Below are positions 22,444 through 60,345 of a DNA stretch of 64,000 bases, piece by piece. The notes under the pieces were generated by a model that saw nothing but the letters and a program-made list of their open reading frames with translations, ran no database searches and was not told where the DNA came from. A program made the translations under genes and the position numbers. The stretch is from a virus (taxonomy: Duplodnaviria; Heunggongvirae; Uroviricota; Caudoviricetes): positions 7,041 to 71,040 of IMG/VR virus record IMGVR_UViG_2713896899_000007, one strand, 5' to 3'. Numbering within the stretch: position 1 is the first letter of the stretch; each line of letters opens with the position of its first letter.

Positions 22444-24003
22444 ATGACTGTTCGGATTGTATCTAACGCAGTTAATGCGCTTATTTCTGGCGCAGATGAC
22501 AAGGTAAAGCAACTGGTGCAGCAAATGTTGAGCTACGAAGTCGAGACTGGCGACTGGAAGGGCACAAGCACGATGTTCAACTGGAGTAAAAACTCGTTCC
22601 CTGCTGGCTTTGCCAAGCCTGTAGCGGCGAACTTGAACAAGGCGGGCATCAAATGTGTTCATATCCGCAAAGACAAAGCCCCGGCGCTTGGTAAACCAAA
22701 TCCGGCGGTTAACCCATTCCCATACAATCCTGATTATGCGTATCAGGATCAGACTGTGGAAACACTGGTTCGAGAGGGAATGATGATTGCGCAGATCGCT
22801 ACTGGTGGCGGGAAATCTAACGTTGCCTGCAAAGCAGCTGCACGTATCGGTCGAATGACATTATTTTTAACAACCCGCTCTGTTCTGATGTTTCAAATGG
22901 CCGAAAACTTCCAGAGATCCATCGACTACCGCGCCGAAAATGGCGAACCGTGGTTAAAAGACCAAAAGGTTGGAGTCATTGGCTCGGGTGAGTTCCAGGT
23001 ATCACGACATATCAACGTCGCTACAGTTCAAACTCTTGCAAGTTTCCTCGAAGAACCACCACGCGATGCAACACCAGATAAGAAAAGCTACCACCTCAAA
23101 CGTCGGGAGTTGGTGAAACGCTTCCTTTCAAGTGTCTCTCTTCTTATTCTGGAAGAGGCGCATGAGTCTTCAGGCTCAAATTTCTATGACATCGCCAGAT
23201 TATGTGTGAACGCAGACTATCGTCTGGCGCTTACAGCCACGCCGTTCATGAAGGATTCGACGGAAGCCAACATGCGCCTGATGGCGGTGGCCGGGCGAAT
23301 TGAAATTAAAGTCACAGAAAAGTACCTGATTGATCGAGGCATTCTGGCAAAGCCGTACTTCCTTTATCATAAAGTTGCCTACAAACCAGACGAGGCCAGA
23401 ATCAAGGCAGAACTTGCCAACAAACACCTCAATTTTAGAGTAGGTATGAGTACTGCCTACCAAAAGGCTTATCAGTTGGGGATCGTGTATAATTTGGGAC
23501 GTAACGAGGCCATTGTTCGCGAAGCATTGCTCTATAAGCAACATTCTCTCAATTGTATGACTCTGGTTCGCCTTAAACGCCACGGGCAAATCCTGATGGA
23601 AATGATGAAAGAGTCCGGCCTTAGAGTTGACTTCATCTATGGGGAATCTAACCAGGCGACAAGGCAAGCAAAGCTGAACAGTTTAGCGTCTGGAGAAATA
23701 GATGTTTTAATAGGCTCGACTATTCTGGATGTCGGTGTTGATGTGCCAAGCGTTGGTGCGGTCATTCTTGCTGGTGGTGGGAAAGCAGAAGTTGAAATGA
23801 GGCAGCGTGTCGGTCGTGGCTTACGAGCCAAGAAGAATCAGGCAAACGTGTGTTTTATCACTGATTTCATTGACACTAGCAACAAATACCTGTTGTCTCA
23901 CTCTTATGAGCGAAAACACATCATCGACACCACACCTGGCTTTGCAGAAGGTGTATTGCCTATTGATGGCGCATTCGATTTTGGAGTTCTGAAACGAGAT
24001 TAG
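22444..24003 (+). CDS. Superfamily II DNA/RNA helicase
   Basis: Motif I ATGGGKS, motif II ILEEAHE, motif III TATP, motif VI QRVGRGLR. Confidence 0.8.
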   Translation: MTVRIVSNAVNALISGADDKVKQLVQQMLSYEVETGDWKGTSTMFNWSKNSFPAGFAKPVAANLNKAGIKCVHIRKDKAPALGKPNPAVNPFPYNPDYAYQDQTVETLVREGMMIAQIATGGGKSNVACKAAARIGRMTLFLTTRSVLMFQMAENFQRSIDYRAENGEPWLKDQKVGVIGSGEFQVSRHINVATVQTLASFLEEPPRDATPDKKSYHLKRRELVKRFLSSVSLLILEEAHESSGSNFYDIARLCVNADYRLALTATPFMKDSTEANMRLMAVAGRIEIKVTEKYLIDRGILAKPYFLYHKVAYKPDEARIKAELANKHLNFRVGMSTAYQKAYQLGIVYNLGRNEAIVREALLYKQHSLNCMTLVRLKRHGQILMEMMKESGLRVDFIYGESNQATRQAKLNSLASGEIDVLIGSTILDVGVDVPSVGAVILAGGGKAEVEMRQRVGRGLRAKKNQANVCFITDFIDTSNKYLLSHSYERKHIIDTTPGFAEGVLPIDGAFDFGVLKRD

Positions 24004-24005
24004 TT

Positions 24006-24284
24006 ATGAGCGAAAAGAAAACAACTTATTGCCAAGTGGCATTGTCTGATAAGGCCAATGAAAAACTTGGAAAATTTCAAATAAAACTCAAAGAGAAAAA
24101 AATCAAGATGTCTAAGGCTGAAGTTATCAATGCCATTCTGGAGACGATGACTATGGCTGAATTTGACAAAGTCACATCTGCCGTTGGGGTTTCCGCTAAG
24201 ACGCGTGAGAAAATCATGCGCATCTATGAAAACTCCAATATGACAAAAAAAGATCTAGAGGAAATACTGAGCAGGTTGCCGTAA
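24006..24284 (+). CDS. Hypothetical small protein (possible RHH-type DNA binder)
   Basis: 92 aa, starts 3 bp after helicase stop; Lys-rich. Confidence 0.4.
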   Translation: MSEKKTTYCQVALSDKANEKLGKFQIKLKEKKIKMSKAEVINAILETMTMAEFDKVTSAVGVSAKTREKIMRIYENSNMTKKDLEEILSRLP

Positions 24285-24316
24285 CATTTCATATTTACCC
24301 CCTATCAACTAATTCT

Positions 24317-24351
24317 ATGATGTGCTCACTTGTTAGAAAGGAGCACATCAT
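24317..24351 (+). promoter_or_regulatory. 11-bp perfect inverted repeat occluding RBS and start codon
   Basis: ATGATGTGCTC (24317-24327) pairs with GAGCACATCAT (24341-24351); AAGGAG RBS and the ATG at 24350 lie in loop and stem. Confidence 0.4.
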
Positions 24352-24916
24352 GAGTTGGTTAAAAGAATTATCATTTGTTGACACCACTGGCGCTAAGAAA
24401 AATCATTCTTTCTGGAAAGTCAGCGATCCTTCTGATTTTCTTGTTGGTGCTAATGCTGCTTTTGAATTGCTTAACTTTTATCAACGTTATCCTGAAATGA
24501 AACACAGTCCACTCCTGTACAGAATAACAAACGATATGAATAGGTCTGGTTTATTATCAAGTGAGTCAGCGAAAGGCTTTTTTAGCAAAATTACGCCACA
24601 CATATCATTCGATGCAGCAAACGAAATTGATTGTCTATCCACGAAACCTCAAGAACAATTATCTGTACCACCTGAGAAAAAACAAAGACGAATTGCCAGC
24701 ATTGAAAATATATCGAAAGAGCTTCGCACAACAACGTTGAGGCTGCTGAACTTTCTTACGCTACTTAATTGGATAGATGATCAAACATTGATTCCATCAA
24801 CCGATGCGTTGGATAACAGAGTACTTAGGCTGAACAAAAAATCGCAATTTGGTTTTGTGTTCACCAAAAAAGGTGAAGATTTAATCAAAAGAAAATATAG
24901 ATTATTGAATGATTAA
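24350..24916 (+). CDS. Hypothetical protein (AT-rich island)
   Basis: RBS AAGGAG 8 bp upstream of ATG 24350; track start 24317 lies inside an 11-bp inverted repeat. Confidence 0.45.
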   Translation: MSWLKELSFVDTTGAKKNHSFWKVSDPSDFLVGANAAFELLNFYQRYPEMKHSPLLYRITNDMNRSGLLSSESAKGFFSKITPHISFDAANEIDCLSTKPQEQLSVPPEKKQRRIASIENISKELRTTTLRLLNFLTLLNWIDDQTLIPSTDALDNRVLRLNKKSQFGFVFTKKGEDLIKRKYRLLND

Positions 24917-24923
24917 TAGTCTA

Positions 24924-24970
24924 CATGCAGGTGTATGAGAGCACCTGCATGTGATATTCATCACATTTTT
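24924..24970 (+). terminator. Hairpin(s) plus T-run after gene 24350..24916
   Basis: 10-bp stem CATGCAGGTG/CACCTGCATG followed by short stem GTGAT/ATCAC and T6. Confidence 0.4.
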
Positions 24971-25061
24971 TGAAGTACACACCTCCGGCTGAAAAAATTT
25001 CTTGATTGGCAGAACGATATTTGTAGGCTTTTCAATTGATAACTAAGGTCGGATACTGTAG

Positions 25062-25550
25062 ATGAGTATTTCCATAAACAAAATAATTAACTCTTTACGA
25101 CATAAAATATCACATGGAAAAGATGTTCTTTTTAAAGACAAATATTATCTATTCAACCTAGAGTTGTACAAATGCACAAAATTTTATATCACTCGGAACC
25201 GTAAATATTCAGCTTCAATCACAAAAGACATGAAGAAAATCTCTTCAGAAGAGTACTTCATATCACATATTTATATCTACCCATTTAAATTAGAACCATT
25301 AAATATAATTCTTCCAACAATAAAAGGGGTTGAACTTGAAGGTTATACTTTAAGCTCTAACTTTAATGATATGGGTGTACAAAAACCAGGGACAAGGTCA
25401 TACTACGCCTACAAAGTAAAATGCAATAACTACAACGCACTTAACATGCTAATCAGCAAACTTGAAACGGAGATAGTCGAAGGAAATCTAAATGATGATC
25501 ATGAAAAATTAGAACAAATAGAAAAACTTAGAAAGTGTGATGTTAAATAA
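25062..25550 (+). CDS. Hypothetical protein (AT-rich island)
   Basis: 162-aa ORF, very low GC, Lys/Asn/Ile-rich. Confidence 0.4.
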   Translation: MSISINKIINSLRHKISHGKDVLFKDKYYLFNLELYKCTKFYITRNRKYSASITKDMKKISSEEYFISHIYIYPFKLEPLNIILPTIKGVELEGYTLSSNFNDMGVQKPGTRSYYAYKVKCNNYNALNMLISKLETEIVEGNLNDDHEKLEQIEKLRKCDVK

Positions 25551-26165
25551 TTGGATTATCATGATATGAAAATGAAAATTTCGTTACTCCTTGCTTGTAT
25601 ATGCCTCCCGGCGTTTTCCGCCAACGCATTATCAGATTTCGTCTCTGACATGCAAAAAACGTACAGCATGTTTACCTCCGAAGACGTAGTAGAATACAAA
25701 TCACGAGGTCTGAATCAGCCAGTTTGGTTCAGATTCTCAGACAACGCAGAAGAAACAATACTTAATGGAGGAAAAGAAAGATTACGGTTGCAAATTAACG
25801 GGACCGCTGTACCAGAAAACGTTAATGTAAACTCTGACGAAGCCATGAAGCCATCTGGAATTGTTTTAGAAGTTCAAGACGGCACACTTTACTGTGATGA
25901 AATGGCTACAACAGGTTGCCAAGTAAACATTAGGGTTGGCAATGAAGAGCCTATCGTTACTTACGCCAAGGCTGAAGGGAATACAAGTGGAAAGGTATTG
26001 TTTATCGATGAAAATATCTCAAAACGTATCGTTCGTGACATACAGAAAACAGCTAACTCTAAATCCGTCGATAAAAAAATCTATGTTGAGGTTCCCTTCT
26101 TTGTCGTTGGTAACAAAGAATTTAAATTTGGGTTGCTGAAAACACCTCTAAGAGTATCAGAATGA
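25551..26165 (+). CDS. Secreted/periplasmic protein of unknown function
   Basis: Signal-peptide-like MKMKISLLLACICLPAFSANA (probable start 25566); two Cys in mature part. Confidence 0.5.
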   Translation: MDYHDMKMKISLLLACICLPAFSANALSDFVSDMQKTYSMFTSEDVVEYKSRGLNQPVWFRFSDNAEETILNGGKERLRLQINGTAVPENVNVNSDEAMKPSGIVLEVQDGTLYCDEMATTGCQVNIRVGNEEPIVTYAKAEGNTSGKVLFIDENISKRIVRDIQKTANSKSVDKKIYVEVPFFVVGNKEFKFGLLKTPLRVSE

Positions 26166-26686
26166 GAACATTGGACATCACCTACGGCATACCGGCTGAA
26201 GTCTGGCCGCGAGACTACGAACATGCTGAAAACATACTTATGTTCTGGCGGAAGAACAACATTCCTGTAAGAGTCACGCTTGAAGACGGTCAGGTGTTTT
26301 GCATGTACGTTCAGGGGACAATGCCTTCCCGCAATAAGCTAGATTTATGCCCGCTTCCATATGATAAAGAAAATCGTATAAGACTCCCACTTGAGCGCAT
26401 TAGCACAATTGAATCAGGTGTAATCGATGGCATTGCTCGCGAGTTCAAAGGTAGGCTAACAATACATCCAGACTATGTTGACAATCAGCCATCACGCCGT
26501 GACTTTTTTGCGATATGTCGCAAGGCTTATCAAAACGACCAATCTATAAGGGTCTACATGGCAGACGGTCGTGAAATTGAAGGGGTGTCAAGAGGCGTTG
26601 ATGCTTGCCAGGTCACTCTTAAGTTAGAAGACGGCAGAAAAATACTTGTTTTCTTCGATTGGGTTGAACGAATCCTTCCATTTTAA
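26162..26686 (+). CDS. Hypothetical protein with internal duplicated segment
   Basis: Repeated VRVTLEDGQVFCMYVQG / IRVYMADGREIEG / VTLKLEDGRKILVFF units; ATGA overlap with upstream gene. Confidence 0.45.
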   Translation: MRTLDITYGIPAEVWPRDYEHAENILMFWRKNNIPVRVTLEDGQVFCMYVQGTMPSRNKLDLCPLPYDKENRIRLPLERISTIESGVIDGIAREFKGRLTIHPDYVDNQPSRRDFFAICRKAYQNDQSIRVYMADGREIEGVSRGVDACQVTLKLEDGRKILVFFDWVERILPF

Positions 26687-26878
26687 ATCTATAAGGGTAA
26701 TAACCGGCTAAGCCCGGTTATTATTTTACATGCCATTCATTTAAAACTCTTTCAATGCCACTCTGTATAAATATATAAGGTTAAAGGCCCGAATTGATTA
26801 TTTATTTAGGGAACACCTTCGACGATCTCGCTTTTATTTCTAGGACTTTCACCCCTGCAAAAAATTTAAAAAAAACAC

Positions 26879-26906
26879 TTGCAATCTTTTTTCACGTATC
26901 GATAAT
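26879..26906 (+). promoter_or_regulatory. Sigma70-like promoter with A-tract UP-like element for AT-rich island genes
   Basis: -35 TTGCAA (26879-26884), 16-bp spacer, -10 GATAAT (26901-26906); A-rich tract 26859-26876. Confidence 0.5.
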
Positions 26907-26981
26907 TGAACTCGTCGAAAGCGAGCTGGCTAACGACAGTAAAAAATAAATTCATTTTAATTTTTCGTAAGGATGTCCATC

Positions 26982-27632
26982 ATGGCTAACATTATCATTT
27001 CTAAAAAATCCATCATTGAAGCTGCTTCCATTGTATCCGATGAACTGCGCGAAAAAGCAGATCTGGCAACTCAAACATATAACGAACATTATAAAAATGG
27101 TACGCACACTAAAGCAGACAAAGCAAATATGCAAGCTGCGACCACTAAACTTGCTTACTTCATCAACAACGTCGTAAACGCAGTAGAAGACGAAAAATTA
27201 TGCTCTGTTTTCTACTATGCGATTAAAGCAAGCAAACAAGCGCCAGAAGTATTTTTCCGTGATGCTATGACTAATAGTTATTCACTGGAAAAACTGGTTT
27301 ATCTGGTTAAATCCATTAAAGCTGGTAAATGCGTTTATTCCGTCGCTGATATGTCAGGATCTCGTGTATTCGCTTTAATCGATATGATTAACGACGAGAT
27401 CGACACGTTCACCAATGGCGCTGTTTTCGATTTAATGAATGAAGCTAAAAAAGCGTGCGAAATTAAATTGGACGCTGGCTATACTCAAGCCAACCAGTTG
27501 ATCAATCTTTGCGAACGTCTCGGACTTGTTGAAAAAGTCAAAGGAGCTGGGAGCGCCAAAGCTGGTACGCAGCAATATCGCTTCATTAAAAATGATTTCT
27601 ACAATTATTTAGCTGATGCTTTTAAAGCGTAA
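26982..27632 (+). CDS. Hypothetical protein (AT-rich island)
   Basis: RBS AAGGA 9 bp upstream of ATG 26982; preceded by sigma70-like promoter at 26879-26906. Confidence 0.5.
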   Translation: MANIIISKKSIIEAASIVSDELREKADLATQTYNEHYKNGTHTKADKANMQAATTKLAYFINNVVNAVEDEKLCSVFYYAIKASKQAPEVFFRDAMTNSYSLEKLVYLVKSIKAGKCVYSVADMSGSRVFALIDMINDEIDTFTNGAVFDLMNEAKKACEIKLDAGYTQANQLINLCERLGLVEKVKGAGSAKAGTQQYRFIKNDFYNYLADAFKA

Positions 27633-27644
27633 TTAATGAAATCA

Positions 27645-27663
27645 AGCGCCCACTATGGGCGCT
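27645..27663 (+). terminator. Hairpin AGCGCCCACTATGGGCGCT (internal attenuator-like)
   Basis: Same stem sequence as terminator at 28141; weak T-run. Confidence 0.35.
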
Positions 27664-27681
27664 TTAAAGGAGCTTTCAAAA

Positions 27682-27885
27682 ATGGTCAGCTATGACAAGA
27701 TCCGCGCGGAATATCGCGCAAAGTATCGCGCTTATAAACTGGAATTAATCGACGATTTGATCGCGCAACGCGACCAATTAAATTTTACGTTTTCTGATTT
27801 GCTTAACAGTAAACGAGATTGTAAGCGTAAGCGTGAATATTTACGTTTAAGCGCATTAATCGGAAAACTTCAAAATTCTATTTAA
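27682..27885 (+). CDS. Hypothetical small basic protein
   Basis: RBS AAGGAG at 27669-27674 then ATG 27682; track start 27655 lies inside a terminator hairpin. Confidence 0.4.
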   Translation: MVSYDKIRAEYRAKYRAYKLELIDDLIAQRDQLNFTFSDLLNSKRDCKRKREYLRLSALIGKLQNSI

Positions 27886-27905
27886 TTTTTTTAAGGAGCT
27901 TAATC

Positions 27906-28133
27906 ATGGTTATTTTCATCTCTGGCGTAAATATCAATAATCATACTCTTGTTTATGATATTGCTGGTTTAGCTGGATATGCTCTAAGTTCTGAAGTGGT
28001 TGATGAAACAACGTTTAAAATAAACATCAATGACGTAGAACATAGAGCGCGCGTAGGAATCAATGAAGCTGATGTTACTTTAATGCTTCAAGAATTTTTA
28101 AACGCTGGCTTTAATATTCACTTAGAAAAATAA
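27906..28133 (+). CDS. Hypothetical small protein
   Basis: RBS AAGGAG at 27890-27895, ATG 27906; followed by strong terminator. Confidence 0.4.
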   Translation: MVIFISGVNINNHTLVYDIAGLAGYALSSEVVDETTFKININDVEHRARVGINEADVTLMLQEFLNAGFNIHLEK

Positions 28134-52966: not shown

Positions 52967-53027
52967 TTTTTATCCTTAACCCATTTTGAGAGTTTTATTG
53001 TCGCAATGTCGAAGAGGCGAACAATTT

Positions 53028-53672
53028 CTAATGAACGGTTACTCGGCCACAGAACCGGTTTTCTATCTTTTCTACAGCGTTATCTAGCATTCTCATCACT
53101 GATCTGGCTCTTGCTTCAACCGTGCGATATCGGTTGGAAACGACGAAGGTTTGCAGATCTCCCCTTTGCGGATGCAGGTGAATTTTTGTCAGTTCCCCGC
53201 ACATCAACGCATCAATACGAGCGACATACAGACGGTCTAATGATGCTCGTTGTGATCGCAAGTAATCTCGCTCTGAGAGAGCGACTCCCGGGCGTAAGCC
53301 AGCAATGGCGTTAAAGTTTGAAATAGCAGTTTTGTGGCAAAACTTTTCGATATCGAGGGCTAACTCAATACACCGATCTTCATTTGTATGGCCGACCAAA
53401 TCCAACGTGTAGGCCATAACATCAGCAGGTGTGCGATCGATAACAAAGCCTTCAACACCACGCGTAAGTAGCTCTATATGCTTTGCTATTTCCATTTGAA
53501 TCTGAAGCCGCTCATATAGAGGCATAGACTCACCTACTCGAACACCGAGGCGGCTCATCAAACTTCCGACACCAGCATCCACGTAAGGGATTCCGTAATG
53601 TTTGTCGATATATTTAGCCAGGGTTGTTTTCCCACTGCCCTGAGCACCAGTGATCCCAATCCGGTAATCCAT
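53028..53672 (-). CDS. P-loop nucleotide kinase (deoxynucleoside monophosphate kinase-like)
   Basis: Walker A GITGAQGSGKTT at N-terminus; 214 aa; sits in nucleotide-metabolism block. Confidence 0.5.
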   Translation of the reverse strand: MDYRIGITGAQGSGKTTLAKYIDKHYGIPYVDAGVGSLMSRLGVRVGESMPLYERLQIQMEIAKHIELLTRGVEGFVIDRTPADVMAYTLDLVGHTNEDRCIELALDIEKFCHKTAISNFNAIAGLRPGVALSERDYLRSQRASLDRLYVARIDALMCGELTKIHLHPQRGDLQTFVVSNRYRTVEARARSVMRMLDNAVEKIENRFCGRVTVH

Positions 53673-54148
53673 TACGACCTTCTGTATACGATCTGCGAAA
53701 AGCCAGGCTCTTCCTCGCTGGCTCGTTGGGTATAAGCTGTTTCAACAGGCACAAAGCCTAAGTTACGCATCATGCTTGCCGGGAAGAATGCATCGGCGTT
53801 TGGTACATCAACGCCGATGTGGGAGAGCCAAATCTCTTCAACATGCGGCATGAATAGCGAGTAAATTTGTTCCCCGCCAATCACCCACACAGGCTCTGGT
53901 AATCGCAACACATCATCCACACCAGCAGGGTAGAATCCATTTGGTACAAAGCCATGAGAGCGCGTCAAAACGAGGTTATGACGCTCTGGAAGAGGGCGTT
54001 TGAGACTTTCCATCGTTTTACGCCCCATAACGACAGTGGCGTTTTTGGTGAGTCTCTTAAATAGCTTCAGATCGGTAGAACAACGCCAGGGCAGTTCGTT
54101 CGCTATGCCGATCTCATAGTTACGGCCAACAGCAGCTATCATCTTCAT
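53672..54148 (-). CDS. folA: Dihydrofolate reductase
   Basis: MIAAVGRNYEIG...LPWR...VVMGRKT...VIGGEQIY pattern typical of DHFR; 158 aa. Confidence 0.85.
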   Translation of the reverse strand: MKMIAAVGRNYEIGIANELPWRCSTDLKLFKRLTKNATVVMGRKTMESLKRPLPERHNLVLTRSHGFVPNGFYPAGVDDVLRLPEPVWVIGGEQIYSLFMPHVEEIWLSHIGVDVPNADAFFPASMMRNLGFVPVETAYTQRASEEEPGFSQIVYRRS

Positions 54149-54558
54149 TTGCTCACCTCATAGATGACCGGTCTATGATGAGAGTCAGCTAAAGCGGCAC
54201 GGAGTCGAGGATCGTGCACCAGCGCAGCGATAAGCAGATCGCCTTTATGCTCCGCTAATGTGCGCTTAATATGCTTCTCATAACTGGTGCCATTCGGTAC
54301 AAGATGAAGCCAGTCGTAATCAACGCCAAAATCTTTCAGCCATCGTTTAGTGGGCGCTTCAAGAGTTTCAGAGCGGCTACTGATAAGCACCACTTCAGCC
54401 CCTGAGCGAGCAAAACCACGCAACATACGGCTGGTGGGGAAAATGAGTTCATCACCGGCAATGAGCTGGCCTGCATCCGCGTCAGATACAGATTTACGAT
54501 GGCTGGTATTTGCCAGCACACCTTCAATTTCGCATAAGACATACATACCTCTTGCCAT
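54145..54558 (-). CDS. Hypothetical protein (possible HAD-like phosphatase)
   Basis: Start set to internal Met 54558 to avoid a 47-bp overlap with thyA; no canonical DxD motif seen. Confidence 0.35.
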   Translation of the reverse strand: MARGMYVLCEIEGVLANTSHRKSVSDADAGQLIAGDELIFPTSRMLRGFARSGAEVVLISSRSETLEAPTKRWLKDFGVDYDWLHLVPNGTSYEKHIKRTLAEHKGDLLIAALVHDPRLRAALADSHHRPVIYEVSK

Positions 54559-54559
54559 A

Positions 54560-55690
54560 TCACACCGCCACTGGAACCTTGATCCACGGTAGAGGGTCAT
54601 AGCCAAGAATCAGAATATCGTCCCATTTGAAATCATCCAGCTCAGACCATTCATGAGGGAAAATAACGACCGGATCTGAATGCTCTGGAGCCTGTCGTTT
54701 CATTAGCTCACACACACTTTCCATGTGGTTATTGTATAAATGCACGTCAAAGCCAAAATGCACAAATGCACCGGCCATGTGACCCGTAATCTTCGCGAGA
54801 AAATGAGTGAGAATGCCATAGCCAGCAATATTGAATGGCATACCAACAAAAGTGTCTACGCTACGCTGTACGAGGCAGGAGTTGAGGATGCGTTTGGGGA
54901 TTCCAAGTTCATCCAGTTCAGTTTCAGTAACACTGCCGTCCATCTCCAGATCGTATAGCATCTTGGTGTAGATAGACTCGTAACCGAGGCGACTGTGTTG
55001 AAGACCAATGTCTGTTGCCATCGTTAAACGAGTTTCAAAATCAAGCTCACGACTCCACAAAGAGAAGGCAAAGTGGCAAGGTGGCAGTTTCATATCCTCA
55101 AGCTCGCCTACGTTCCATGCGTTAAGCATGATGCGACGATCGGTAGGGTTCGTGCGCAGTGTATCGACAATACGCTGTAGCTGATCGATTTCACGGGACA
55201 GCACTACGCGATCTTCACTGATACCCAGGTATCCCTCGACTTTGTACCCGCGTTCACGGAAAGTATCGATCTTGCTCAGATATTCACTATGGCTCACGAT
55301 GCGGGTATCTTCCCATCGACGCCACTGCTTACCGTAAACCGGCCCCAAATCGCCATTCTCATCGGCCCATGCATCCCAAATTTTAACGCCGTTATCCTTG
55401 AGAAATTGGATGTTGCCCGTGCCTTTCAGATACCACTCAAGTTCGACAAGTAGTGGCTTAAGATTTACCGCCTTTCCAGAAATAAGCGGCACAGTCCCAC
55501 CAGTAAGCATGTAGTAAGAGGGAACGTAGCAGGTGCTTAAAGTACCAGTGCCTGTGCGATCATCAGCCTGCACGCCGCTTTTAAGCACCGTCTCAATAAC
55601 TTTTGCATACGATGCGTTTGTTACCTGACCGTTCGTATGCTCACGATTCAAAAGGAGTGACACAAAAACCTCACAAAGATAAGTAACCAC
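54560..55690 (-). CDS. thyA: Thymidylate synthase with two large insertions
   Basis: DRTGTGTLS, DENGDLGPVYGKQWR, catalytic PPCH, FNIAGY, HLYNNH, GYDPLPWIKVPVAV all aligned to ThyA; about 35-aa and 50-aa insertions relative to E. coli ThyA. Confidence 0.8.
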   Translation of the reverse strand: MVTYLCEVFVSLLLNREHTNGQVTNASYAKVIETVLKSGVQADDRTGTGTLSTCYVPSYYMLTGGTVPLISGKAVNLKPLLVELEWYLKGTGNIQFLKDNGVKIWDAWADENGDLGPVYGKQWRRWEDTRIVSHSEYLSKIDTFRERGYKVEGYLGISEDRVVLSREIDQLQRIVDTLRTNPTDRRIMLNAWNVGELEDMKLPPCHFAFSLWSRELDFETRLTMATDIGLQHSRLGYESIYTKMLYDLEMDGSVTETELDELGIPKRILNSCLVQRSVDTFVGMPFNIAGYGILTHFLAKITGHMAGAFVHFGFDVHLYNNHMESVCELMKRQAPEHSDPVVIFPHEWSELDDFKWDDILILGYDPLPWIKVPVAV

Positions 55691-55834
55691 TTATTCATTG
55701 CGTGAGTTTACATTCATTGAGAGAACAAGACCAGACAGATAAAAAAATGGTGGCCATAGGCCACCAAAAACGAATAGTTGTTTCAGAAATTTAACGCGCC
55801 AACGCAATATACACAGATAGATAACTACCTACAA

Positions 55835-56704
55835 TTATTTTTTGATCATTCCGTACATTGCTGAGGCTTTAGCTTGCTCAACAAAGGAGGATAAATCGAC
55901 ATCACTATAGGTTGGAGACTTCAGAATCTTTCCATCGGAAATTCGAAAACCGATCATCTTATCGGTGCCATCAGCATGGCGAAATCCCAGGTCAGAAGAG
56001 TCGTATTTGCAGTTGGCCACAGCATGGCGACGCTCTTCGGCATCTGCAGGCCATAATTTTGTCATGTTGGACCGATGAATTTCGCCAACCAGCTCGACGA
56101 CATTGATACCGAGGAAATCAGCCAGTCGATAGGTCATCATGCACGCCACATAGATTTTGTTCATTACACGGCGCAGTTCCTGAATCAGCTCAGAATCCTT
56201 AACAGTCTTGTTCTCAAGTTTATCTGCCAGCTCTTCGAGCATACATGACGCCTCACGAGCTTCCTGAAATGGCATTGCCATATCATCGAAAACAGTGTTA
56301 CCAGGCACAAAAATTGTCTGCATAAAGCGATCAATGCTCTGTTCCTGCGTGTAATAGGTCATGCCGGTAGAAATACCACCTTTGATGGCGACCATCGTAC
56401 CAACACCAACGTATAAAAAGTCGGCCATTGCATCCAGCAGTTGCTCAATATCCCCATTCATTGCGGCTGGAATACCTTCCACTACAGCTTCTTCATGAAT
56501 CAGGCTTGCACGGAGACGAAGCAGCTCTGGTGTCGGCATAACGCGTCTCGGATGCTGGAAGAGTTCATGAAACTGATCGACCATCTTGTAAATACTTTCA
56601 GTGGCTACACCATGGCCTTCATGCAACTCATATGGTTCTGGCTTAAATCCAATGAGTCGATCGGTGGCAAGTTTCAGGTGGTCAGTCAGTTTGGTAAAGT
56701 TCAT
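55835..56704 (-). CDS. Hypothetical protein
   Basis: 289-aa ORF between thyA and nrdB. Confidence 0.4.
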   Translation of the reverse strand: MNFTKLTDHLKLATDRLIGFKPEPYELHEGHGVATESIYKMVDQFHELFQHPRRVMPTPELLRLRASLIHEEAVVEGIPAAMNGDIEQLLDAMADFLYVGVGTMVAIKGGISTGMTYYTQEQSIDRFMQTIFVPGNTVFDDMAMPFQEAREASCMLEELADKLENKTVKDSELIQELRRVMNKIYVACMMTYRLADFLGINVVELVGEIHRSNMTKLWPADAEERRHAVANCKYDSSDLGFRHADGTDKMIGFRISDGKILKSPTYSDVDLSSFVEQAKASAMYGMIKK

Positions 56705-56781
56705 GCTAGTTTTGTTCCTTCTTAATTCTTGTGATCCATTGTGGCCCAGCGTTGCCAGGCCACATAATGCTTTGTATCGGT

Positions 56782-57924
56782 TTACAGGTCTGCAAACTGG
56801 CTTAGAGAAGCCTTATCCACAGTAGAATCGATCTGACCTACCAGATATGTGCTTTGCTCTGCCTCTTGTGGTGCAATTTGCAGTGTGTCGGTTAACAACC
56901 ACTTGTTCATCCAGACCAGCGGATCGGTGGTAACCTCTGGAAATAAAGCCTTCAGGCCAAGACGATTCATAGCCAGATTGGTGCGGTATTTTACATAGGT
57001 CTTCAGAATATCCGCGTTTAAACCAATCATCGAACCGTCTTTGAAGAGATAGTCTGCCCAGTTCATTTCTTGTTCGGCGACTGATTTCATGGTGTCGTAA
57101 ATGACGTTTTCTTCATCAGCAGCAATCTCTTTCCACAATAAACCTTCGCGACCGGTACGCATGAAGCGGATCATGCGTTCAGTTCCTTCGCAATGCAGAG
57201 CTTCATCACGGGCAATAAAGCGCATAATTTTGGTGTTACCCTCAAGCAACTTCCGTTCGCCAAAGGCAAACGTACATGCAAAACTTACATAGAAACGGAT
57301 CGCCTCAAGCGCATTAATGGACACCAACGTGCGGAAAAGCTGACGGTGCAAAGGGTATGGCTCCCAGCCATATTCATTTACGTACAGACGTTCAAACTCC
57401 TTCTCACCTAACGACTGGCGCTCGCAGGTCATCCCATAAAGCCTGTCATATTCAGCAGAGATACTGATCGCTCGGTTGATGATTTCTTCATCCGTAACAA
57501 TACCGTCAAAAACAATGCTCGGATCGTCCACCATGCCACGAATAATGTGGGTGTAGCTGCGGCTATGGATAGTCTCAGAGAAAGACCATGTTTCAACCCA
57601 CGTTTCCAGTTCAGGAATAGAGATAAGCGGCAGCAACGTTGCATTTGGGCTACGTCCCTGAACTGAATCGAGTAACGTTTGATAACGGAGATTGCTCAGA
57701 AAAATGTGACGTTCGTGGTCCCGCAGCTTCGTGTTGAAGTCGATACGATCGCTCGAAATATCAACTTCTTCCGGCCGCCAGAAGAAAGACAATTGACGTT
57801 CAATCAACTTTTCAAAATCACGGTATTTTTGCTGATCGTAACGTGCCACGTTGACAGATTGTCCGAGGAACATAGGCTCTTTGGTTGCATCATTAGCACC
57901 CAAACGGAACGTTGAATATGACAT
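56782..57924 (-). CDS. nrdB: Ribonucleotide reductase class Ia beta subunit
   Basis: [34 protein letters not shown]...FFWRPEEVD closely parallels E. coli NrdB; start set to ATG 57922-57924. Confidence 0.9.
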
Positions 57925-58029: not shown

Positions 58030-60345
58030 TCAGATTTTGCAGGCTCCGTCGCACTCATCTTCTGGCTCGACGGCAACAGCTTGCGTAAGTGGATTCTTCG
58101 GTTCGTCGTCATCACGCTTTCCTGCCCCATCTCTGGTGTTGTGGTAGTAAAGCGTTTTAACTCCCATCTTGTAGGCGAGAAGCAAATCTGACAGTAGCGT
58201 CATCATTGGGACTTTATCGCCTTCAAAGCGAGAAGGGTCATAGTTGGTATTGGCTGAAATAGCCTGGTCAAAGAACTTCTGGATGATCGCCACCTTTGTC
58301 AGATAGCCGCGGTTGTCCGGCATATCCCACAGGTATTCATACTGTTCCTTCAGTTTTTCAAACTCAGGCACGACCATCTTAACGATGCCGTCCTTAGAAG
58401 ATTTCACCGACACCGGTCCACGAGGCGGTTCGATGCCGTTGGTGGAATTAGTGATCTGGCTGGAAGTCTCGCATGGCATTTGTGCCGTCAGTGTGGAGTT
58501 GCGAAGACCGTATTTTGCAATACGTTCACGCAGTTCTTCCCACGGCATCTTTAACTCAAAGTTGGTTTCGCCACTTTCGTCTAATGAAGAACGGTAATGG
58601 TCGATCGGCAACTGACCAATTGCGTACTTGGTCTGCTCAAACCAGTCACACTCACCTTTTGCTTCAGCAAGTCGGCAGCTGGCATCAAGAAGGTAATACT
58701 GGATAGCTTCGAACGTTTCATGCACCAGTTTATTGCCAGCGGTATCAGAATAACGAACGCCATTCTTTGCCAGGTAATAAGCAAAGTTGGTTACACCGAT
58801 TCCCAGGCTACGACGAGCTTTGGCAGGCACTTCAGCTGCCTCCATCGGATAGTCTTGATAATCCAGTAACGAATCCAGTGCAGCAACGGCATAGAACGCC
58901 ACCTCTTTAAGAGACTCCAGTGAACGGATGGCTCCGAGGTTAAAAGCAGATAGAGTACACAACGCGATCTCACCGTTCGGGTCGTCGGTAAATGTCAGTG
59001 GACGGGTGGGTAGGGTGATCTCCATACACAGGTTTGACTGGCGGACAGGTGCAAGAGCAGGAATGAAAGCGCCATGCTCGTTAATATGATCGACGTTCGC
59101 AATATAAATTCGGCCCGTGGACGCTCGTTCCTGCATCAGAGATGAGAACAGCTCAATGGCAGGTACTGACTTCTTGCGAATTGAATCATCGGCTTCGTAT
59201 TTATGGTACAGCTTTTCAAACAGATCCTGGTCTGTGAAGAAGGCTTCGTACATATCAGGCACATCATGCGGGCTGAACAGAGTGATGTTCTCGCTTCTGA
59301 CGAGTCGACGGTACATTAGACGGTTACTCATGACGCCGTAATCAAGATGGCGAACGCGGTTTTCATCAATACCACGGTTATTTTTCACCACCAGCAGACT
59401 TTCAACTTCAAGATGCCAGATCGGGTAAAACGCTGTTGCTGCGCCACCACGAACACCACCTTGCGAACAAGATTTAACAGCAGTCTGGAAATGCTTCAGG
59501 AATGGAATAACTCCGGTATGGGTGGCTTCACCATTGCGGATCTCGCTGCCAAGCGCACGGATACGGCCAAAACCAATACCAATTCCAGCACGACGTGAAA
59601 CGTAGTCGATAATTGCGGCTGAAGCTGCACTAATACCTTTCAGACTATCGCCAGACTCAATCAGCACACAACTGGAGAACTGACGGGTTGGAGTACGGAC
59701 GCCGGCCATGATTGGTGTGGGCAGAGACAGTTTGAACGTACTTGTAATGTCATAGAAACCTTTGACCATCTCCATACGTGTTTTGCCCGCGCAGTCGTCT
59801 TCCCAATTCTGGAACAGACACATGCCAACCAGCATATAGATATGTTGCGGACCTTCGTGAATCTCACCAGTAACACGGTTTTGTACGAGATATTTGCTTT
59901 GCAGCTGCACCGTAGCCGCATAGCCAAAAAGATCGTCACGTTTAGGCTTAATGTAATTGCCGAGTTCTTCGATCTCTTCAAACGAATAATGTGTCAGCAA
60001 ATCCTTGTCATAAACGCCCTTGTTAACGTTCTTGACAATGTGTTGGTAGAAGTTCGGATAGTCGTAACGACCGAAGGCATCTTTGCGGATTTTAAAAATG
60101 TTCAGGCGGGCAGCCACCTGTGAGTAATTTGGTGCTTCTGGTGAGATCAAATCAGCGGCAGATTTAACCAAAGCCTCATGCAACTGGCTGGTGGTCATCC
60201 CATCAAAAATGCTGGCCACAGCTCCCATTGCTACAGCGGATGCGCTTACGCCACGAATGCCTTCTACGCCATACATTACGACGCGGTTGTATTTTTCTTC
60301 GGATAACGGCTCTGTTTGGCCGTTACGTTTTACGATGCTTATCAT
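58030..60345 (-). CDS. nrdA: Ribonucleotide reductase class Ia alpha subunit
   Basis: 771 aa; conserved blocks LPTPIMAGVRTPTRQFSSCVLIE, NLCMEI, C-terminal GACKI. Confidence 0.9.
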   Translation of the reverse strand: MISIVKRNGQTEPLSEEKYNRVVMYGVEGIRGVSASAVAMGAVASIFDGMTTSQLHEALVKSAADLISPEAPNYSQVAARLNIFKIRKDAFGRYDYPNFYQHIVKNVNKGVYDKDLLTHYSFEEIEELGNYIKPKRDDLFGYAATVQLQSKYLVQNRVTGEIHEGPQHIYMLVGMCLFQNWEDDCAGKTRMEMVKGFYDITSTFKLSLPTPIMAGVRTPTRQFSSCVLIESGDSLKGISAASAAIIDYVSRRAGIGIGFGRIRALGSEIRNGEATHTGVIPFLKHFQTAVKSCSQGGVRGGAATAFYPIWHLEVESLLVVKNNRGIDENRVRHLDYGVMSNRLMYRRLVRSENITLFSPHDVPDMYEAFFTDQDLFEKLYHKYEADDSIRKKSVPAIELFSSLMQERASTGRIYIANVDHINEHGAFIPALAPVRQSNLCMEITLPTRPLTFTDDPNGEIALCTLSAFNLGAIRSLESLKEVAFYAVAALDSLLDYQDYPMEAAEVPAKARRSLGIGVTNFAYYLAKNGVRYSDTAGNKLVHETFEAIQYYLLDASCRLAEAKGECDWFEQTKYAIGQLPIDHYRSSLDESGETNFELKMPWEELRERIAKYGLRNSTLTAQMPCETSSQITNSTNGIEPPRGPVSVKSSKDGIVKMVVPEFEKLKEQYEYLWDMPDNRGYLTKVAIIQKFFDQAISANTNYDPSRFEGDKVPMMTLLSDLLLAYKMGVKTLYYHNTRDGAGKRDDDEPKNPLTQAVAVEPEDECDGACKI

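Follow-up and report, generated by a model that had tools for sequence, protein, structure and literature searches.

Thymidylate synthases (TS) of the ThyA family are obligate homodimers with shared active sites, and the arginines equivalent to R176 and R177 of the protein described here act across the dimer interface. A C-terminal P-V-A-(I/V) tail closes the active site for hydride transfer. Insert-bearing TS include that of L. casei, with a 50-aa insert in the small domain that lies upstream of Tyr94 and not after W101; human TS, with inserts of 12 and 8 aa; and T4 Td. TS oxidizes folate and hence needs dihydrofolate reductase (DHFR), whereas dUMP hydroxymethylase does not (PMC4528723).

The DNA analyzed here, referred to as the window, is a 64,000-nucleotide stretch of the Caudoviricetes record IMGVR_UViG_2713896899_000007. 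It encodes a ThyA homolog with two large insertions. We consider it very likely that this protein is a bona fide folate-dependent ThyA (EC 2.1.1.45) in the nucleotide-supply operon of a phage-plasmid and that the inserts form an accessory surface module.

At the DNA level the window thyA is 98% identical to the genes of Escherichia phages CMS-2020a, PhiR41_1, and Cyrano and 78% identical to that of SSU5, and a 100% identical gene is carried by the 110-kb E. coli plasmid NZ_CP048306.1. The gene was found in 230 of 5426 complete E. coli genomes, in which 232 of its 234 locations are plasmids. The plasmid location of the gene, together with the phage matches, indicates that the window represents an SSU5-like phage-plasmid. 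SSU5 carries ParA- and ParB-like partition genes. Orthologs are present in SSU5-like phage-plasmids of Salmonella, Klebsiella, Enterobacter, Raoultella, Providencia, Morganella, and Xenorhabdus. Existing annotations of SSU5, PhiR41_1, and more than 200 E. coli plasmids already name the gene product thymidylate synthase. The Cyrano record labels its ortholog ThyX, which is the wrong family.

The longest open reading frame for the gene, from the six-frame list, spans 54560..55690 on the minus strand and encodes 376 aa from the furthest upstream GTG. However, the true start is the GTG at 55663, codon 10 of that frame, because indels immediately upstream of codon 10 break the frame in the alignment with SSU5 and PhiR41_1, a GAGG ribosome-binding site read from the sequence (55669..55672, minus strand) lies 5 nt upstream of this GTG, and a start codon is kept in the relatives (codon 10 is GTG, TTG, or ATG across the window, SSU5, and PhiR41_1). 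The GAGG is also kept in SSU5 and PhiR41_1, with spacing indels just downstream of it. The corrected coding sequence (54560..55663, minus strand) encodes 367 aa plus a TGA stop, and a matching 1104-nt coding sequence is annotated by GenBank, RefSeq, and PGAP in SSU5, PhiR41_1, and E. coli plasmids. The N-terminal extension (residues 1-17; 55613..55663, minus strand) is about 15 aa longer than in E. coli ThyA, with 18 residues ahead of the conserved Tyr compared with 3 in the 264-aa ThyAs of a 113-sequence alignment. Thus, the extension of about 25 residues described in an earlier reading of the sequence alone resulted from taking the longest open reading frame. In the AlphaFold2 (AF2) model, residues 1 to 4 have pLDDT values below 50 and residues 11 to 29 form one helix, so that helix A is longer by about half of the extension and the chain is disordered at its very start. 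The extension is the least constrained region of the protein (pN of 0.235 versus SSU5).

Several lines of evidence identify the protein as a TS. It matched the Pfam family Thymidylat_synt (PF00303; E = 2.8e-79, 266.4 bits versus a cutoff of 24.3) and passed the NCBIfam thymidylate synthase equivalog model TIGR03284 (221.8 bits versus a cutoff of 108.35). The lineage-specific NF0024xx and NF010393 models were not passed, as expected given the inserts. The best PHROG was phrog_160, thymidylate synthase, matched in one continuous stretch (8e-96), and phmmer against PDB sequences recovered E. coli ThyA structures at E of about 1e-61. Identity to E. coli ThyA is about 45% over aligned columns. The sequence-only reading had stated that all of the ThyA catalytic blocks are present, and the conserved residues in the alignment confirm this. 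With the E. coli equivalents in parentheses, they are R36 (R21), E74 (E58), W96 (W80), W99 (W83), Y110 (Y94), R176/R177 (R126/R127), C196/H197 (C146/H147), Q266/R267/S268/D270 (Q165/R166/S167/D169), N278 (N177), H308/Y310 (H207/Y209), and a C-terminal PVAV (PVAI). The catalytic Cys196-His197 pair is encoded by TGCCAC at 55073..55078 (minus strand), and C196/H197, E74, Y110, D270, H308, and Y310 are invariant columns of the alignment. All four dUMP-phosphate arginines (R21, R126', R127', and R166) are present as R36, R176, R177, and R267, and the folate side is represented by W96 and W99 together with a C-terminal VPVAV. The uracil-specifying residues N278 and H197 are also present; dCMP hydroxymethylase has Asp at the E. 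coli 177 position. The positions of H147 and N177 are reported to separate TS from cytosine-modifying homologs (PMC8670742).

The AF2 monomer model has a pLDDT of 95.2 and a pTM of 0.93, and the TM score for superposition of the model core on E. coli TS is 0.94, normalized to the target (Foldseek, E = 2.7e-32). These results suggest that the window ThyA is almost certainly an ordinary, functional TS. A search of the literature found no enzyme assay or nucleoside analysis for this protein or for any other ThyA with both inserts. The SSU5-like clade diverges at core positions that are usually conserved and noncatalytic (for example, QFY to SLW and WTGGD to HFGFD), and therefore these enzymes may have altered kinetics or regulation.

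The genes surrounding thyA form a string of nucleotide metabolism functions on one strand, in the order nrdA, nrdB, MazG-like gene, hairpin, thyA, HAD-like gene, DHFR gene, P-loop kinase gene, small protein gene, and DnaQ-like exonuclease gene. The class Ia ribonucleotide reductase genes nrdA (58030-60345, minus strand) and nrdB (56782 to ~57924, minus strand) were assigned by syntenic annotation in SSU5 and PhiR41_1. A MazG-like nucleotide pyrophosphohydrolase of 289 aa (55835..56704, minus strand) matched PF01503 (1.3e-8) and phrog_671 (1.1e-47), with a weak match to DR2231. Between this gene and thyA, a consensus scan located a putative terminator-like hairpin (55748..55766, minus strand) with an 8-bp stem containing 6 G-C pairs followed by a T-run, which is kept in SSU5 and PhiR41_1. 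Downstream, a HAD-like small protein of 137 aa (54145..54558, minus strand; phrog_5387) matched Pnkp1 (4xrp, 1.9e-5) and scored below the cutoff for PF25109 HAD_PNKP (23.1 bits). Its gene starts 1 nt after the thyA stop and shares an ATGA overlap with the DHFR gene (53672..54148, minus strand; PF00186, 1.6e-34), which in turn shares a TAATG overlap with the gene for a P-loop kinase-like protein of 214 aa (53028..53672, minus strand). From the 1-nt spacer and the two overlaps, thyA, the HAD-like gene, the DHFR gene, and the kinase gene are predicted to be translationally coupled. The kinase-like protein matched AAA_28 (2e-9) and the thymidylate kinases of phrog_2107 (2.9e-10), and tblastn with it recovered only phage genes annotated as AAA_28 or thymidylate kinase; it is possibly a deoxynucleoside monophosphate (dNMP) or thymidylate kinase. 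The window DHFR is 91% identical to that of SSU5, which is DfrA51. The dfrA51 gene is experimentally active and confers trimethoprim resistance (PMC12217456).

In the pathway that we propose, Cys196 would attack C6 of dUMP, and the methylene group of 5,10-CH2-THF would be transferred to C5 and reduced by the cofactor hydride to yield dTMP and dihydrofolate. The co-translated DHFR would then recycle the dihydrofolate. Ribonucleotide reductase, the MazG-like pyrophosphohydrolase, and the P-loop kinase would plausibly supply dUMP and pass dTMP onward.

TS homologs of phages are sometimes hydroxymethylases, and it is conceivable that the window protein acts on dUMP or dCMP as a hydroxymethylase, supplying a modified-base pathway, with inserts that reshape the active site. 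The P-loop kinase encoded two genes downstream of thyA might be taken as a sign of such a pathway, as 5-hmdU DNA kinases are P-loop kinases (PMC8989533). However, Asn278 and His197 are the residues for uracil specificity and TS-type chemistry, the PVAV tail is kept, the TS equivalog cutoff is passed, and thyA is coupled to a gene for DHFR, which hydroxymethylases do not need. That 230 complete E. coli genomes maintain the element as a plasmid also speaks against this explanation, which we regard as very improbable. The proposal made in the sequence-only reading that the adjacent DHFR argues for genuine dTMP synthesis is instead supported by the predicted coupling of the DHFR gene, the specificity residues, the TS tail, and the equivalog threshold.

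A 5-hmdU hypermodification pathway was specifically considered and rejected. A tblastn search with the P-loop kinase matched only 29 phage records (E ≤ 1e-4), several of them annotated as thymidylate kinase and none from the hypermodifying phages ViI, M6, SP10, phiW-14, and PaMx11, and companion genes for an aGPT-Pplase, dCMP deaminase, dTTPase, or glycosyltransferase are not annotated anywhere in SSU5, as judged from annotation only.

The two insertions interrupt an otherwise canonical ThyA. The phmmer match to E. coli ThyA falls into three blocks, in which residues 27-127, 165-212, and 270-376 of the longest open reading frame align with E. coli residues 3-102, 106-153, and 160-264. Insert sizes were counted between flanking markers on the 113-sequence alignment. 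The W101-D110 interval has 42 residues in the window ThyA versus 8 in canonical 264-aa ThyAs (+34), and the H147-Q165 interval has 68 residues versus 17 (+51). These counts agree with the sizes of about 35 aa after the KQWR block and about 50 aa after the catalytic Cys-His that had been estimated from the sequence alone. Insert 1 comprises residues 118-159 (EDTRIV...SREI; 55187..55312, minus strand), a net gain of 34 aa between E. coli W101 and D110, in what is presumably the same loop as the 8-aa insert of human TS. Insert 2 comprises residues 207-257 (LDFETRL...GIPK; 54893..55045, minus strand). It adds 51 aa between E. coli D156 and G157, where the beta-hairpin that begins with the catalytic Cys makes its turn.

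Both inserts are predicted by AF2 with a pLDDT above 93. Insert 1 consists of a strand (117-124), two helices (125-130 and 132-137), and two further strands (141-146 and 152-159), and would thus form a small beta/alpha unit. Insert 2 consists of three helices (209-225, 231-242, and 247-253) and would form an acidic three-helix unit on the catalytic hairpin (197-206 and 258-270), at its distal tip; the other end of this hairpin bears Cys196/His197 and Arg267/Ser268. Judged by strand geometry, insert 2 would be attached about 30 Å away from the catalytic Cys. From this position at the far tip, insert 2 follows Cys-His in the sequence without being placed in the active site. The suggestion that insertions near the active site alter the use of substrate or cofactor therefore finds no support in the model, in which insert 2 leaves the far tip of a 10-residue beta-hairpin.

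Most likely, the two inserts together constitute an accessory surface module, with the TS core and its chemistry unchanged. The packing of the module and its distance from the active site were inferred from secondary-structure topology, whereas the co-occurrence of the inserts and their confident folding were shown. No match contained either insert in Foldseek searches of PDB structures, in which all matches covered the core only (TMq of about 0.65 to 0.71). When searched alone against Pfam (E ≤ 10), insert 1 had only a subthreshold match to Sedlin_N (16 bits versus a cutoff of 23.1), which we treated as chance, and insert 2 alone matched nothing in Pfam (E ≤ 10) or among PDB sequences. No paper on the two ThyA inserts was found in the literature.

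In the comparison with SSU5, insert 1 had a pN of 0.021, insert 2 of 0.131, and the core of 0.058, and pS was between 0.5 and 0.9; pN and pS are reported rather than omega because synonymous sites are near saturation between the window and SSU5. These values point to purifying selection on both inserts. Insert 2 has a net charge of -7 in the window ThyA and is acidic throughout the subfamily of ThyAs with both inserts (mean of -3.7), which argues against binding of nucleic acid. In 51 ThyAs with both inserts, R212 and P256 of insert 2 are invariant, and conservation is 90% for R258 and 84% for D251. A specific function of the module is suggested by the strong constraint that acts on insert 1 and by the invariance of the Arg in insert 2.

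Group I introns are classically found in the thyA and td genes of phages, which raises the question of whether the inserts might be remnants of a mobile element (an intron, a mini-intein, or a fragment of a homing endonuclease) or noncoding read-through. An intron or intein was to be recognized by ribozyme structure or by splicing blocks in an insertion of at least about 130 aa, and the inserts are 34 and 51 aa long. Known group I introns and inteins are longer than the 102 and 153 nt of the inserts. An Rfam scan of positions 53000-57000 gave no match even at E ≤ 1, and there is no significant similarity of either insert to Pfam families or of insert 2 to PDB sequences. The inserts are in frame in all homologs, appear to be under purifying selection as protein, and are predicted to fold with confidence. 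These observations leave such an origin scarcely credible.

The inserts, although real, are a common trait of phage ThyA, jumbo phages included. We assigned a ThyA to a two-insert subfamily if it has at least 11 aa after E. coli W101 and at least 28 aa in the 154-158 hairpin and keeps R212 and P256. The window ThyA, with gains of 34 and 51 aa and both residues present, belongs to this subfamily, which is defined in this analysis rather than by a curated model. The NF010393 model (PRK13821, 323 aa) was considered as a description of the family and rejected, because the query and ten homologs with both inserts scored far below its 576-bit cutoff, which indicates a different lineage. Among the 113 ThyAs aligned, 51 carry an insert 2 longer than 25 aa, and all 51 also carry insert 1; insert 1 can stand alone.

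Beyond SSU5-like phage-plasmids, the next-best phage matches were to jumbo phages, including SPN3US and its relatives, CR5, and many Erwinia jumbo phages. Their ThyAs matched in a single tblastn piece over 95 to 98% of the query with 37 to 41% identity, and explicit alignment of SPN3US gp229 and CR5 gp107 placed both insertions at the identical two sites. Many clusters of 315- to 480-aa ThyAs, among the best 150 matches to representatives at 50% identity, span both inserts in one stretch. Two metagenomic members with both inserts were looked up, and both are on phage-like contigs, one of them 356 kb long. In BFVD, TS models of jumbo phages (201phi2-1, Yoloswag, and A0A1C3NFC4) gave TMq values of 0.79 to 0.87 versus 0.68 for insert-less TS, from which it follows that the inserts superpose too. 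Thus, the alternative named in the sequence-only reading, that the insertions are common in phage ThyA, is borne out, because the same sites are occupied in SPN3US, CR5, and dozens of metagenomic phage ThyA clusters. A widespread ThyA subfamily, carried mostly by phages, appears to be characterized by the two inserts and the short N-terminal extension. In a neighbor-joining tree of 264 core columns, computed without support values, the SSU5-like clade was monophyletic and the other ThyAs with both inserts were interleaved with insert-less ones. The insert motifs shared across the subfamily favor a single origin. DHFR adjacency was considered as a general correlate of the inserts and rejected, because it is absent in SPN3US and CR5.

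One possibility for the function of the module is that it serves as an interface, either in a cross-subunit contact of the TS dimer or in docking DHFR, ribonucleotide reductase, or the kinase in a dNTP-synthesizing complex, with TS catalysis kept. The residue just before insert 2 (Y153 in E. coli and Y202 in human TS) is at the monomer-monomer interface, and it has been proposed that the T4 dNTP synthetase complex is contacted through the insertions of T4 TS. An interface would be consistent with the finding that insert 2 never occurred without insert 1 in the 113 sequences, with a pN of insert 1 below that of the core, with the high pLDDT of both inserts, and with the conservation of R212, P256, R258, and D251 and the consistently acidic character of insert 2 across 51 diverse members. 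However, such conservation could merely reflect the folding needs of the module, and the inserts of SPN3US and CR5 occur without an adjacent DHFR gene, so that docking specific to DHFR would not be general. We therefore consider a functional interface a tentative explanation and, on balance, an unlikely one. The broader proposal, that this acidic module of about 90 residues with Arg212, Pro256, Asp251, and Arg258 is a dedicated interface common to phage-plasmids and jumbo phages, is slightly more doubtful still. If it were true, the module would clamp the TS dimer or dock TS to the nucleotide metabolism enzymes of the phage, and it would give phage TS a property that cellular TS lacks, such as channeling, stability, or escape from a host factor.

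The preferred interpretation, a folate-dependent TS with an accessory surface module, makes the product of the locus an ordinary enzyme of dTMP synthesis, in line with its existing annotation in public records. The functional role of the insert module is the only part of the finding with novelty. TS is highly conserved and well studied, yet a large phage-borne subfamily has a conserved module that is in no solved structure. If the module is a device for interaction or stabilization, it could inform how phages organize nucleotide synthesis. The neighboring DHFR is of practical interest as a dfrA51-type determinant of trimethoprim resistance.

Compared with E. coli ThyA (264 aa; 2TSC and 1TYS), the window protein has the same fold, the same tail motif, and the same catalytic, dUMP-binding, and folate-binding residues among those checked, and it is longer by 34 aa after W101, by 51 aa between D156 and G157, and by about 15 aa at the N terminus. 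None of the solved TS structures that were matched has an insertion in the 154-158 hairpin, unlike the window ThyA. However, the TS of L. casei, human, and T4 provide a precedent for a core that tolerates lineage-specific surface insertions with the same chemistry. The dUMP and dCMP hydroxymethylases (SPO1 gp29 and T4 gp42) belong to the same superfamily and use the same Cys-dependent activation of the pyrimidine, but in their reaction the exocyclic methylene is hydrated rather than reduced, and they have no need for DHFR. The residues and the tail specific to TS are retained in the window protein. The gp42 of Acj9 matched the window model with a TMq of only 0.44 and 12% identity.

The closest relatives, SSU5 gp081 and the proteins of PhiR41_1, Cyrano, CMS-2020a, and Klebsiella phage-plasmids, have 77 to 99% protein identity and share the length, the inserts, and the operon. 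The SSU5-like records call the protein thymidylate synthase and leave the inserts uncommented, and there is no substantive difference between these proteins and the window ThyA. The ThyAs of the jumbo phages (SPN3US gp229 and CR5 gp107), in which no DHFR gene adjoins thyA, unlike in the window, have somewhat shorter inserts, and the 201phi2-1 type (457 to 471 aa) adds further insertions. SPN3US gp229 and CR5 gp107 share with the window ThyA the motif D-x-x-V...G-Y in insert 1 and the motif S-R-E-(L/M)-x4-R ... L-D-x3-I-P-x-R in insert 2.

Among 51 diverse two-insert ThyAs, the thymidylate synthases that carry both insertions, Arg212 and Pro256 of insert 2 (residues 207 to 257; window 54893-55045, minus strand) were invariant, Asp251 and Arg258 were highly conserved, and the acidic character of the insert was consistent. 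These four residues are obvious candidates for mutagenesis. The GenBank entry for Escherichia phage Cyrano labels its orthologue (OV696614.1, 72630-73730) "ThyX Thymidylate synthase." This label is a mis-annotation, as the family is ThyA (PF00303).

The interval separating thyA from the MazG-like gene holds a hairpin rich in G+C with a T-run after it (55748-55766, minus strand), and the hairpin is kept in Salmonella phage SSU5 and Escherichia phage PhiR41_1. Because the conserved hairpin and T-run stand ahead of thyA, this gene may begin a transcription unit of its own. A search of that strand for a sigma-70-like promoter gave none. The upstream gene (55835-56704, minus strand) encodes a 289-aa MazG-like pyrophosphohydrolase. 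Two distinct stretches of it, residues 51-104 and residues 184-217, weakly match the MazG-like protein DR2231, which suggests an all-alpha NTP-pyrophosphatase that is tandem or internally duplicated. This protein is possibly the supplier of dUMP.

The HAD-like protein (137 aa; 54145-54558, minus strand) matched the phosphatase domain of the polynucleotide kinase-phosphatase Pnkp1 (4xrp; 1.9e-5). Its gene is linked by translational coupling to the DHFR gene and, on the far side of DHFR, to the gene for a P-loop kinase-like protein (214 aa; 53028-53672, minus strand). The HAD-like and P-loop kinase-like proteins could work together as a nucleotidase and a dNMP kinase, or they could be the two halves of a split PNKP-like system. 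No homologue of the P-loop kinase-like protein was found in known thymidine-hypermodifying phages.

Elsewhere, a low-GC island (24000-28000; GC of 0.36-0.39 versus ca. 0.47 in the rest of the window) is transcribed against most of the window and probably represents accessory cargo of the phage-plasmid. It encodes a FljA-like "repressor of phase-1 flagellin" (26162-26686, plus strand; PF03614, 5e-81), and the other open reading frames around it in the island lacked Pfam matches.

The DHFR gene (53672-54148, minus strand) neighbours thyA. The SSU5 DHFR recently received the name dfrA51 and was shown to make E. coli less susceptible to trimethoprim, with a raised MIC (PMC12217456). The window DHFR is 91% identical to it, and the phage-plasmid therefore probably carries a trimethoprim resistance determinant.
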